Positions 18,048 through 20,209 of a DNA stretch of 64,000 nt are shown here, one piece after another. Numbering within the stretch: the stretch's first letter is position 1; every line of letters starts with the position of its first letter. Below the pieces are notes generated by a model. That model had not been told where the DNA came from. It did no database searches and was given only the letters and a program-made list of their open reading frames with translations. Position numbers and translations under genes: made by a program. The stretch is from Chryseobacterium sp. GTDB taxonomy: Bacteria; Bacteroidota; Bacteroidia; Flavobacteriales; Weeksellaceae. Where the stretch lies: contig JBCNMJ010000001.1 of NCBI GenBank assembly GCA_039594975.1, positions 20,402 to 84,401 of the forward strand, read 5' to 3'.

Positions 18048-18177
18048 AAGGTAATTATCGAAAAAAGTAATGGGGCTGCGTTATGCCGGAGTCGAACCGG
18101 ATAATCTTGCCGGAGTAACCGACTACATTATTCCTCCCCTTCCAATGGTAACGAAGTAACTTTTTTCTACGACACTT
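18048..18177 (-). ncRNA. Y-RNA-like unit A (T-arm-containing insert)
   Basis: 5' AAGUGUCGUAGAAAAAAGUUACUUCG; 3' ACUUUUUUCGAUAAUUACCUU; internal CCGG-UUCGACU-CCGG. Confidence 0.7.
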
Positions 18178-18190
18178 CTATTATTTTTAA

Positions 18191-18329
18191 ACAAGGCAAC
18201 AATCAAAAAGCGTAATGTCGTGCTCTAACCAACTGAGCTACTTTTCCTATATCATTTTGTGTTTTATGGTGGAAAAGACGGGAATCGAACCCGTGACTCC
18301 GTCGTGATGAGCGAAGTAACACTATTTTA
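18191..18329 (-). ncRNA. Y-RNA-like unit B (YrlA-type circularly permuted tRNA)
   Basis: ACAAG/CUUGU closing stem; order T arm (ACGGG UUCGAUU CCCGU), loop-closed acceptor stem (CUUUUCC/GGAAAAG), D arm (GCUCAGUUGGUUAGAGC). Confidence 0.85.
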
Positions 18330-18348
18330 CGGCACTTGTTTCTATCTT

Positions 18349-19188
18349 TTAAATTTCTTCTTCAGCAATAAATGTTTTTACAATCGGACTTACCGTTGTT
18401 CCTTTTGGATGATAATTCATACCGAAACTTGACCAGCCCGAAGACCAATAGAGCATCATTTCTTTAAGATAGGGAACATCCTTAGTTTCATCATATTTAA
18501 AATTCTTATCAAATATTTGTTGGATTTCTGGTAATACCTCAGGATAAAACATCTGATCTTCTTCATCAAAAACGTATTCATAAATATCAAGATGATTCCT
18601 AATTTCATTCAGCAAATAAGTTCTGAAATCCCAACCCACCACAATAATATCTGAACCCCAACTGGAAATTATCGGTTTCCATTTTAAATTATCGTCACCT
18701 ACCACGAAGCGGTGGTTGTAAATTGGCAAAAGTTGTGGAATTTTAGAAAACCATTCTTGAAAAATTTTTTCCCTTTCTTCTTTGGATGATGGTTTTTTCC
18801 CCCATGATTTCAGCCAAACCTTATTAAGCCCTTCAACATCCGAATAAAACCAGTCCGAAAGACCATGAAGCCTTTCCACGATTTCCTGTTCATCTACCAA
18901 CCAATTATAAAACCATGTGCTTTCTTCAAAAATCACCACATCATTTTCACCATTATACTCTATGATTTCTTTCTTATCAATGGCATGAAGGATTTTTAAG
19001 AATTCTTTGTGTTCATTATTAAATTTTACGCCATACTTCTGTTCAACTTCATCAATCTGTGGCTCTGTAAGAGGCTGCCATTTTGCACTATAAAATTCAT
19101 GCTCGCGCCAGTCTTCACTCGCCCACAGGTTTTCTGTACGTTCTCTTACCCAATATAAGAAATCAGTTAAATTTTCAGGTATAATCAT
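18349..19188 (-). CDS. SMI1/KNR4 (SUKH)-like protein
   Basis: PLTEPQIDEVEQKYGVKFNNEHKEFL N-terminal SUKH-like signature; LLPIYNHRF. Confidence 0.65.
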   Translation of the reverse strand: MIIPENLTDFLYWVRERTENLWASEDWREHEFYSAKWQPLTEPQIDEVEQKYGVKFNNEHKEFLKILHAIDKKEIIEYNGENDVVIFEESTWFYNWLVDEQEIVERLHGLSDWFYSDVEGLNKVWLKSWGKKPSSKEEREKIFQEWFSKIPQLLPIYNHRFVVGDDNLKWKPIISSWGSDIIVVGWDFRTYLLNEIRNHLDIYEYVFDEEDQMFYPEVLPEIQQIFDKNFKYDETKDVPYLKEMMLYWSSGWSSFGMNYHPKGTTVSPIVKTFIAEEEI

Positions 19189-19226
19189 TGTATTACAGGA
19201 TTTCTAATTTTTTATATATAAAACAG

Positions 19227-19446
19227 ATAAGGTAAAAGGCGAAAAAGGTGTGCTCTTTTCAGAGCGCCGCTCTTACCCGATTTGGGCAGTGAGCCGGCAA
19301 TTCTACATCTGCGAGAGACTTGCGCTTTTTTACAAAAACTTTTGCCAAGTTGGTTTTCAACCCAACCTCACTAGTTCGGTCGCCCGAATTTCGCTACCTT
19401 AGGACCGTTATAGTTACGAAGTAAACGTTTTCTACGGCACTTATCT
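19227..19446 (-). ncRNA. Y-RNA-like unit C with a 23S rRNA-like insert
   Basis: GAUAAG/CUUAUC closing stem, GUGCCGU...UUACUUCG motif, then 33 nt identical to the conserved 23S H69-H71 sequence. Confidence 0.75.
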
Positions 19447-19462
19447 GCAAATTTTTAAATAA

Positions 19463-19576
19463 AAAAGAGGCAATAGACGAAAAAACTCTTTATATAAACC
19501 ATTTTCAGATCTATTCTGGAGTCGAACCAACATCATAAGATTAACCGAAGTAAGCTTTCTCTAACGGCACTCTTTT
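19463..19576 (-). ncRNA. Y-RNA-like unit D (T arm plus closed acceptor-like stem, no clear D arm)
   Basis: AAAGAG/CUCUUU closing stem; GUGCCGU...UUACUUCG; UGG-UUCGACU-CCA. Confidence 0.75.
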
Positions 19577-19584
19577 ATTGTTCA

Positions 19585-19726
19585 ATCAAGGTAATAATTA
19601 TGGAATCTTCCGTGCATTTGCTCTACCGTCTGAGCTACTTCTCCTTTCCGAGGGAAAAGGCAGGAATCGAACCTGCGACCCAATGTTTACTCAATCTCGA
19701 AGTATGATTCTAAAACGACACTTGAT
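19585..19726 (-). ncRNA. Y-RNA-like unit E (YrlA-type circularly permuted tRNA)
   Basis: AUCAAG/CUUGAU closing stem; GCAGG UUCGAUU CCUGC, CUUUUCC/GGAGAAG, GCUCAGACGGUAGAGC in permuted order. Confidence 0.85.
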
Positions 19727-19751
19727 TTTTATTTTTAATTAATTATTTTAA

Positions 19752-19823
19752 AATCGAGCAATTTTTAAAAAGAGATTTAAATTCAATGTAAAGTAGAAGT
19801 AACTCTTTTTTACGGCATCGATT
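19752..19823 (-). ncRNA. Y-RNA-like unit F (minimal)
   Basis: AAUCGA/UCGAUU closing stem; UGCCGU, AAAAAGAG/CUCUUUUU stem, UUACUUC; short AU-rich loop. Confidence 0.7.
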
Positions 19824-19830
19824 AATTTTA

Positions 19831-19957
19831 AGTAAGGTAAAAAATCAAACAGAACTTGTGTACAGCACGTTGCCGATTACGCCATCCAAATTTTGGAACA
19901 GGATTCGAACCTGTATAACTGCCCCTAACGAAGTAACTCTATTTTACGACACTTACT
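19831..19957 (-). ncRNA. Y-RNA-like unit G (permuted tRNA with short acceptor stem)
   Basis: AGUAAG/CUUACU closing stem; ACAGG UUCGAAU CCUGU; UCCA/UGGA; GCGU-AAUCGGCA-ACGU. Confidence 0.8.
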
Positions 19958-19993
19958 TTTTTAAGTTTTTATGGTTATTGTTTTTTATTGAAG

Positions 19994-20029
19994 CAAAATT
20001 ATTACTCTAGTACGCATTCTTTTTACGCA
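19994..20029 (-). promoter_or_regulatory. Direct-repeat operator plus -7 box, internal promoter of the Y-RNA array
   Basis: TGCGTA-N7-TGCGTA-N9-TAATTTTG on the minus strand. Confidence 0.75.
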
Positions 20030-20047
20030 GTTGAAATTTATTTTAAA

Positions 20048-20131
20048 AACCAAGTAACAATTTTTAAGAGTTTTTGAATGTTTTCAAATTGGAAGTTTGA
20101 CGATGAAACTCTTATGATAACGACATTGGTT
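20048..20131 (-). ncRNA. Y-RNA-like unit H (minimal)
   Basis: AACCAA/UUGGUU closing stem; UGUCGU; UAAGAGU/ACUCUUA stem; variant UUUCAUCG. Confidence 0.65.
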
Positions 20132-20137
20132 AGTTTA

Positions 20138-20209
20138 AACCGAGCGATATAGCGAAAAGACTCTTATTCAAGTGGAAATCGAAGGAATTCTTTTCTTACG
20201 GCATCGGTT
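20138..20209 (-). ncRNA. Y-RNA-like unit I (minimal)
   Basis: AACCGA/UCGGUU closing stem; UGCCGU; GAAAAGA/UCUUUUC stem; variant UUCCUUCG. Confidence 0.65.

Follow-up and report, generated by a model that had tools for sequence, protein, structure and literature searches.

Published bacterial Y RNAs carry a long stem between their 5' and 3' ends, a GNCGAA(N)G motif on the 5' side and a conserved YUAY, and the set found in a species pairs a single tRNA-like RNA with a single hairpin RNA whose loop is rich in pyrimidines (PMC4201824). In the modular model of these RNAs, a Ro60-binding stem is combined with an effector-binding domain (PMC4201824; bioRxiv 10.1101/312249). Chen et al. 2014 counted 355 YrlAs in 276 genomes (~1.3 per genome), with at least two Y RNAs per studied species and 2-5 small RNAs. 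Here we describe nine units (U1 to U9, counted from rsr) on the minus strand of a 64,000-nucleotide window from Chryseobacterium sp., the window being the whole stretch that was analysed (contig JBCNMJ010000001.1, positions 20,402 to 84,401). They follow rsr, the gene of the Ro60 orthologue Rsr, and each is built of a constant part, which we call the handle, and a variable module. Because of their structure, their conservation, their linkage to rsr and their transcription, the nine units most probably encode bacterial Y RNAs, the non-coding partners of Ro60/Rsr, whose gene is just upstream.

In Salmonella Typhimurium, YrlA and YrlB (rsr-yrlBA-rtcBA) lie 3' of rsr and on its strand, as the units do here. 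They also comprise a permuted tRNA-like type and a long hairpin with a pyrimidine-rich loop, and have in common with our units the 5' G-N-C-G motif, the YUAY (UUAC here) and the modular build. However, the two RNAs of Salmonella compare with nine units here, which represent at least six module classes in the window and eight in the genus. The handle also differs from that of Salmonella YrlA, with GYCGU, an extra A-rich helix and UUACUUCG, both helix strands being conserved. No RtcB/RtcA operon is directly attached to the array, and one of its modules is rRNA-like.

Deinococcus radiodurans has a cluster of up to five RNAs by rsr (Yrn1, Yrn2 and RNAs a, b and d), several of them with T arms (PMC4201824). 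Both strands of the Ro60-binding helix are kept there as well, and Yrn1 is non-permuted, like U9 (PMC4201824). On the contrary, the Deinococcus RNAs are upstream of rsr, whereas the array described here is downstream, larger and of conserved order across the genus. RNAs a, b and d are poorly Y-RNA-like, whereas our nine units share one strict handle.

Metazoan Y RNAs (GGUCCGA, with bulged C9) have a terminal stem too, in which a pyrimidine-purine pair comes before an unpaired C, a G·U wobble and, on the 5' strand, an A-U or U-A pair. In the Chryseobacterium handle the C faces a U, a mismatch and not a pure bulge, and an additional U bulges out two pairs lower. Here the effector modules resemble tRNA or rRNA, compared with pyrimidine-rich internal loops in metazoan Y RNAs. 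Finally, the tRNA-like domain of transfer-messenger RNA (tmRNA) and viral tRNA-like structures likewise reuse T-arm and acceptor features for tRNA-binding factors. Unlike these, the units have no mRNA-like part, and their mimics are embedded in a Ro60-type stem.

Nine units and their common handle

A composite regular expression (RTGYCGT, then 4-14 nt, then a UUACUU-like stretch) has exactly nine sites in the 64 kb, all on the minus strand, at 20204, 20126, 19952, 19818, 19721, 19570, 19440, 18335 and 18175. For RTGYCGT alone the window has 22 occurrences where 10.35 are expected, and its nine copies on one strand of 2.2 kb compare with ~0.17, as derived from the window-wide expectation. A structural scan, in which a site had to combine the motif with a downstream R-C and a basal stem of 5 or more contiguous pairs, likewise returned nine units exactly, of 76-224 nt and spanning 18043-20211. 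The first-pass annotation of this DNA had reported nine modular units on the minus strand downstream of Ro60, and both scans return this number; its lengths of 72-220 nt were slightly off. A search for the motif with a fixed gap found nothing, since the gap length varies.

Common to all units are a 5' RUGYCGU, an A-rich stem, UUACUUCG and a 3' UURC. UUACUUCG is exact in U3, U6, U7, U8 and U9, and variant in U1, U2, U4 and U5; these four are the units that had been listed at first pass as variants (E, F, H and I), if that lettering follows plus-strand order. One and the same terminal stem is recovered by minimum free energy folding in 9/9 units. The terminal 5'/3' stem that characterizes Y RNAs is therefore present in all nine.

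The rsr gene (21107..22624, minus strand) encodes a protein of 505 aminoacids (aa) with the Pfam domains TROVE (2.1e-29) and vWA_Ro60 (1.1e-06). Its closest homologues, at 83-95% identity, are all named TROVE proteins and come from Chryseobacterium and Epilithonimonas. The distance from the rsr stop to the first unit of the array is 896 nt, on the same strand. The units had first been described as Y-RNA-like and beside Ro60, and the gene in question is indeed a genuine TROVE and vWA_Ro60 gene on their strand. For comparison, 80 rsr loci were obtained from a scan, with one genome per species. Handle motifs follow rsr on its own strand in 77/80 of these loci, with 2-13 in each and almost none on the other strand. 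Proximity to rsr on the same strand, as in known Y RNAs, is thus observed here, in 77/80 loci and in the distant bacterium Microscilla marina.

The handle was analysed through regular expressions and pairing scans, in 414 distinct handles taken from 526 orthologous units. The variable insert (40-200 nt) separates its 5' and 3' parts. The order of elements is six variable basal pairs, a bulged U on the 5' strand, a G-C pair, a pyrimidine-purine (Y-R) pair, C·U, G·U and the A-rich helix. Each of the six basal positions is paired in 89-99% of the 414 handles and shows 3-5 pair types, and the G-C pair above the bulged U is 98% paired. The Y-R pair is found as CG (193), UA (171) or UG (29), and is unpaired in 5%. 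The C faces a U in 357/414 handles and the G·U wobble is present in 393/414, with the next U standing opposite any base.

In a pair count over 143 handles, 92.8% of the cells are paired compared with 72.8% after shuffling, and 7/10 pairs have changed on both sides. The covariation score of the same handles is 0.633, against 0.244 when shuffled, and slid registers pair in 34-55%. The first-pass annotation had made its reading depend on covariation of the stems among homologous loci, and this is present, in the score as well as in the compensatory changes. The handle is a real, selected RNA helix.

Another register, with a C bulged on the 3' strand followed by U-R and G·U, pairs 96.6% of the cells, yet it leaves the covariation of the Y-R pair unexplained. 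For this reason we prefer the register with the bulged U. A bulged C on the 3' strand was also what had been proposed at first pass; covariation favours instead a U bulged on the 5' strand, with the C of CGU opposite a U. The segment formed by the Y-R pair, the unpaired C and the G·U resembles the known Ro60-binding helix and is, by that analogy, a candidate Rsr site. Along the 5' strand the handle reads G-Y-C-G-U-[A/U], which is near-invariant and departs from the published GNCGAA at position 5.

Module classes and their conservation

The array and its order are kept in 77 other genomes of Chryseobacterium and Epilithonimonas. There are 2-12 units per locus, with a median of 7, and the units of the window have orthologues at 70-96% identity in 17-72 loci each. 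When 633 units of 66-230 nt, taken from 78 loci, were clustered, eight recurrent classes emerged. Their conserved order is S S 3 S (D) Y (N 3) T (R) [279-aa ORF] Y 9, where the ORF is an open reading frame inside the array. Two of the classes, N and D, are not in this window. Compensatory changes affect 15/37 pairs in class Y, 19/37 in class 3 (71 sequences), 17/34 in class 9 (50 sequences) and 12/58 in class R.

Class S, found in 74 loci, is composed of a hairpin only. It includes U1 (20136..20211, with orthologues in 51 loci and a folding z-score of -2.85), U2 (20046..20133, 62 loci) and U4 (19750..19825, 37 loci), all on the minus strand like the rest of the units. The pyrimidine-rich apical loop of this class is conserved, being of the CUUCC type in U1 and U2 and similar in U4. 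The three units are YrlB-like hairpins, with the features of the YrlB/Yrn2 type.

Class Y is present in 78 loci and contains a T arm, a closed acceptor stem and a D arm. This permuted tRNA-like domain occurs only in U5 (19583..19728, orthologues in 72 loci) and U8 (18188..18342, orthologues in 66 loci), the other seven units being without it. At a permissive threshold, the Rfam model of YrlA (RF02553) matches U8 with 35.1 bits (E 3.7e-05) and U5 with 33.9 bits (E 8.3e-05). In both cases the alignment covers model positions 23-85, where GGUUCGAnnCC and GUAGCUCA...UAGAGC are conserved, and U5-type units of three other species match the whole model with 33.4-43.7 bits. A comparison with the Rfam YrlA model had been suggested at first pass; what it reveals is the tRNA-like core of U5 and U8, below the gathering score. 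The two units are divergent YrlA-type permuted tRNA mimics, sub-threshold in Rfam.

In U8 a 7-bp acceptor-like stem is followed by ACCA, like the 3' end of a tRNA, and then by a conserved A-rich loop, which has 19 nt in U8 and 19-23 nt among its orthologues. The stem is present in 58/58 of the U8 orthologues that fit the T-arm-to-D-arm pattern (67 scanned), and most of the orthologues have ACAA or ACAG in place of ACCA. The ACCA of U8 recalls the YrlA of M. smegmatis, which RNase P cuts and to which CCA is added. U8 also gives a weak match to permuted tmRNA (27.4 bits).

Three other classes have tRNA-like parts. Class T (63 loci), to which U6 belongs (19462..19577, orthologues in 59 loci), has a T arm and a 7-bp hairpin, with no D arm. 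Class 3 (54 loci) is a tRNA-like variant, which in U3 (19829..19959, orthologues in 43 loci) consists of a T arm and two hairpins, one acceptor-like and one D-like. Class 9 (51 loci) has a non-permuted tRNA-like fold, formed in U9 (18043..18182, orthologues in 65 loci) by a GGGG/CCCC stem, a long arm and a T arm. The initial description of the inserts as completely different between units was too strong, since U5 and U8 have T and D arms in common and U1, U2 and U4 cluster together. Its wider picture of a constant handle with a variable payload is borne out as a description, although it is not new, being equal to the published modular model of Y RNAs (bioRxiv 10.1101/312249; PMC4201824).

T-arm sequences in five units, self-complementary unit ends, and tRNA arrays nearby (in Microscilla even interleaved with the units) could also point to decayed or rearranged tRNA genes, or to copies of an element like the miniature inverted-repeat transposable elements, with no function of their own. 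However, neither ARAGORN nor the Rfam tRNA model (RF00005) calls any tRNA in 18043-20211. The order is fixed over 78 loci, with the orthologue identities given above, the stems show many compensatory changes, and the composite motif is found nowhere else in the window. In addition, the basal stems differ among units, unlike the inverted repeats of transposons. Synteny and covariation exclude such an origin in practice, and we regard it as very improbable.

The last class, R, is rRNA-like and was found in 13 loci by clustering and in 17 by BLAST. U7 (19224..19447; orthologues in 17 loci and in Microscilla; z-score -3.14) joins the handle to a module that shares 34 nt (19386-19419, minus strand) with E. 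coli 23S rRNA without a mismatch (blastn, 100% over 34 nt). The matching interval covers positions 1910-1943 of the 23S gene, ~1908-1941 in standard numbering, and the 23S gene of every one of the 5426 E. coli genomes is matched by this island. It spans the last four pairs and the full loop of helix 69, plus the strand into helix 70. True 23S contigs from RNA runs align at 19386-19418 only and then continue into canonical 23S; as they diverge on either side, U7 is not part of an rRNA gene.

The consensus fold of class R is rRNA-like too. It has an H69-like hairpin, a long-range helix AGCG(U)/(G)CGCU placed like helix 70, and, at the site of helix 71, a UUCGG-GNRA-CCGAA hairpin (23S: GUCGG...CCGAC), with three more hairpins after it. 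Beyond this region the sequences part: the class R profile matches 80 metagenomic 23S genes only at positions 31-63, and nhmmer searches of each unit family against the E. coli rrn operon found nothing beyond the island of 33-34 nt. A second block (AAGUCUC...AGAUGUAG...GCCGG), likened by eye to 23S nt ~1990-2050, receives no support from profile searches. A mimic of the MazF-type cleavage site UUCCU was also considered and discarded, as U7 keeps only UUC, paired in a mini-hairpin. The H69-like loop is not constant in Chryseobacterium, where forms of 7 nt and of 4 nt exist, and ACGGUCCUAAGGUAGCG(A/U)AAUUCGGGCGACCGAA is near-invariant.

The same handle is found in Microscilla marina ATCC 23134, of the class Cytophagia (locus L085), beside a Ro60 of 61% identity and on the same strand. 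Its units and tRNA genes occupy 5841-10422. The R-type unit at 8984-9228 has the same handle, CGUAACUAUAACGAUCCUAAGGUAGCGUAAUUCGGGCGACCGAA and a second invariant block, AAGUCUCU.G.AGAUGUAGAAUUGCCGGCUCA. Further distant Ro60 loci with Y-type units are L086 (10840-13499) and L092 (8272-9016). At the distant loci, which come from IMG/VR and are flagged viral there, handle-bearing units are interleaved with at least 13 genuine tRNA genes on the Ro60 strand. The rRNA-like module is old or mobile.

To our knowledge, there is no known counterpart to an rRNA mimic of helices 69-71. In Deinococcus, Ro60 has been implicated in 23S maturation and rRNA decay. Literature searches, in a check that is incomplete, found no description of a Bacteroidota Y-RNA array or of an rRNA-like module; this agrees with the first-pass view that an array of such size and variety is undescribed. 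What appears to be new is the scale (nine units in this array and as many as 12 in related ones), the combination of a strict shared handle with eight module classes in conserved order, and the conservation of an rRNA-mimicking module across two Bacteroidota classes.

Transcription and weight of the evidence

The median spacers between units are 2-17 nt. These are too short for separate promoters, and the units are therefore expected to be co-transcribed and cut apart. Yrn2-tRNA(Asp)-Yrn1 of Deinococcus is likewise co-transcribed and then processed (PMC4201824). The only long spacer precedes the class-3 units, with a TAnnTTTG ~42 nt upstream in about a third of the loci. In the window, TAATTTTG (19994..20001, minus strand, 35 nt upstream of U3) is a match to the consensus of this Bacteroidetes -7 box. 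U-rich tracts come after many of the units.

In several studies, assemblies of RNA-seq or metatranscriptome data include contigs over U3-U9 of relatives. One contig, from a root metatranscriptome, spans 19539-19961. Two soil metatranscriptomes cover U5 at depths of 106 and 21 and the adjacent ORFs at zero depth, and a further U5 contig has a depth of 6.5. By comparison, rsr is covered at a depth of 2-2.5 only. A contig of 449 nt contains the 3' part of U7 together with U8 and U9, without the 279-aa ORF. In the contig of soil run X34, with its joint at 18341/19249, the 907 nt holding this ORF are replaced by 39 other letters; such a joint agrees with species whose array lacks the ORF. Strand-specific raw reads of runs X42-X44 include essentially none from the locus. 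Transcription of the units is supported, and discrete mature RNAs remain predicted.

The RNA contigs also bear on whether the units act as DNA or in cis, for instance as integron attC-like sites, terminators or attenuators, and not as trans-acting RNAs. Imperfect hairpins with extrahelical bases around variable content would fit such elements, as would the U-rich tracts and the two ORFs inside or beside the array. However, there is no integrase family among the neighbouring ORFs scanned, and the variable content is mostly structured RNA of 40-200 nt and not genes. The G·U pair of 393/414 handles and the strand-specific tRNA-like fold favour RNA, as does the depth of 106 over U5. We give this explanation hardly any credence.

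Several points weigh against reading the units as Y RNAs. Single-sequence folding z-scores are modest, from -0.9 to -3.1, with only U1 and U7 beyond -2.8, and the structural evidence is therefore comparative and not thermodynamic. The pairing counts given above lean towards structure, as the 3' partner of most handles was chosen by maximal pairing. When the Y-R pair is recounted in 105 handles whose partner is fixed by the basal stem alone, UA is found in 42, CG in 33, UG in 14 and others in 16, and both states are present inside 6/9 families. The handle reads GYCGU[A/U], not GNCGAA, and its binding by Rsr is a prediction made by analogy. No unit attains the gathering score of YrlA (33-44 bits against 69). 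In the U5-type orthologue of locus L015, Infernal puts the first stem of YrlA on the A-rich helix and leaves RUGYCGU outside the model, so that only resemblance speaks for homology between the handle and the Rsr site of YrlA. Finally, the RNA contigs have neither strand nor true ends, their ends fall in repeated handle sequence, and carry-over of DNA as their source cannot be fully excluded.

If the units are Y RNAs, as we consider most probable, then by analogy with GGUCCGA and GNCGAA Rsr would contact the segment made up of the Y-R pair, the unpaired C and the G·U. The units would be transcribed as a few polycistronic blocks, one perhaps from the TAnnTTTG box upstream of U3, and the blocks then cut into single RNAs, probably aided by tRNA-processing enzymes. 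Each module may bring a different partner to Rsr, such as tRNA- or rRNA-binding factors or exonucleases, or may gate the Rsr cavity. One Rsr protein would thereby be supplied with a panel of adaptors. We know of no effector identified so far for a bacterial Y RNA. With 2-12 RNAs, a single handle and eight interchangeable modules, the genus amounts to a natural experiment on the effector module. The rRNA-like module, which extends from Flavobacteriia to Cytophagia, links Y RNAs to the ribosome and offers a concrete bait for a partner. In the same way, the segment with Y-R, C·U and G·U provides a testable candidate Rsr site in a phylum without a studied one. Units of this kind are missed by current Rfam thresholds and are thus unannotated in hundreds of genomes.

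Gene neighbourhood and possible roles

On the strand of rsr there are two RNase_T/Rv2179c-like exonucleases and a T4 Rnl2-like RNA ligase (29354..31847, minus strand, by Pfam), followed by an array of 11 tRNA genes (33733..35997, minus strand, by ARAGORN and Rfam). A DinB_2 protein and an RNaseH-like protein are also found upstream of rsr, within 29354-33373 on the minus strand. Together with rsr, all these genes look like an RNA-damage or repair neighbourhood. Ro/TROVE and a tRNA-like partner have been counted among RNA-repair systems in comparative work (PMC7824862). This neighbourhood of RNA-repair and tRNA-array genes suggests that the panel of adaptors acts in an RNA-damage response.

Inside the array, between U7 and U8, lies the ORF of 279 aa (18349-19188, minus strand), which was absent from the first-pass annotation. 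It is SMI1/KNR4 (SUKH)-like according to the names of its homologues and a weak Pfam match to SMI1_KNR4 (E 0.0075, below cut-off). Its array position is fixed in ~18 loci or species. A homologue in Kordia (locus L084, 10001-10915) stands amid RtcB, two RlaP, an Rnl2-type ligase, RNase T-like exonucleases and ~19 tRNA genes. The neighbourhood of a Chitinophaga homologue was uninformative.

The space between rsr and U1 contains a hypervariable slot, occupied here by an ORF of 230 aa (20252-20944, minus strand) that had likewise been passed over. It is a possible HEPN protein (AbiU2-like), with R152-N153-x4-H158 invariant across 29 homologues, two of which carry the UniRef name HEPN AbiU2-like. 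Profile searches against Pfam and PDB returned nothing for it, and its confident AlphaFold model (predicted local distance difference test score, 88) gave nothing significant against PDB by Foldseek, with a best E of 0.049. A HEPN fold is thus not confirmed by fold or profile searches, and its basis is the RNx4H motif and the UniRef names. Across species (L001-L080), the slot holds at least 10 unrelated ORF families, which include DUF6584 (27 loci), an acidic protein of 217 aa (21 loci) and several singletons. A DUF4145 protein of the slot matches the PADLOC defence model PD-T7-4 (6.6e-21).

Such a slot raises the case of a toxin-antitoxin arrangement, in which the units would be decoys or antitoxins for the RNase-type proteins of the slot (HEPN-like, PD-T7-4-like), as in type III toxin-antitoxin arrays and independently of Ro60. 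The slot does hold unrelated ORFs, the PD-T7-4-matching DUF4145 protein and the RNx4H protein among them, and what the units mimic, tRNA and rRNA, is what such RNases usually attack. On the other hand, arrays of the same composition occur without a slot ORF (L002, L011, L029, L031), and the constant neighbour is rsr and not any single ORF family. ToxI-like type III arrays are near-identical short tandem repeats beside a toxin gene, whereas our units fall into different clusters and differ in length (66-230 nt) and in content. The HEPN assignment is itself weak. We consider this arrangement improbable.

Another reading retains Ro60. The units would form a library of Ro60-loaded mimics of the main RNase targets, namely tRNA shapes and helices 69-71 of 23S, within an RNA-damage island, and would serve as sentinels, decoys or guides. 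The island would be composed of the Rnl2-type ligase, the RNase T-like exonucleases, a spare tRNA array, the SUKH-like protein and the swappable HEPN or defence slot. We hold this to be rather unlikely. If true, the mimics would be cut or bound by ribotoxins, phage or defence nucleases, and so absorb or signal an attack. Alternatively, they would guide Rsr, with the exonucleases that partner it, towards the damaged tRNAs or ribosomes of the corresponding class. Through the R-type unit, Rsr would be docked on a factor or subunit surface that normally reads the region of helices 69-71. As for the units as Y RNAs, the co-location with RNA-repair enzymes, tRNA arrays and a defence-type slot supports a place of Ro60 ribonucleoproteins in RNA-damage conflict systems.

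Directly 3' of rsr, and also missing from the first description, there is a Flavo-1 RNA motif (RF01705) at 20971-21059 on the plus strand, antisense to rsr and the array, with 63.6 bits against a gathering score of 42. Similar sequence is found at an equal place and orientation in at least 45/80 Chryseobacterium loci, for instance at 11598-11673 in L003, 11564-11677 in L009 and 11565-11642 in L015, on the strand opposite rsr. A connection between Flavo-1 and Ro60 may merit testing.

At the other end, a regulator of 201 aa with an HTH_3 domain (Cro/C1, RstR-like; 17442-18047, plus strand) converges on the end of the array. Beyond this gene, within 13443-17354 on the minus strand, there are a CesT/YbjN-like protein and a PspA/IM30 protein. 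Lastly, a LytTR response regulator, a short receiver protein and a His_kinase of the LytS type (23576-25781, minus strand) are encoded just upstream of rsr, on the same strand, and could be regulators of the rsr locus.

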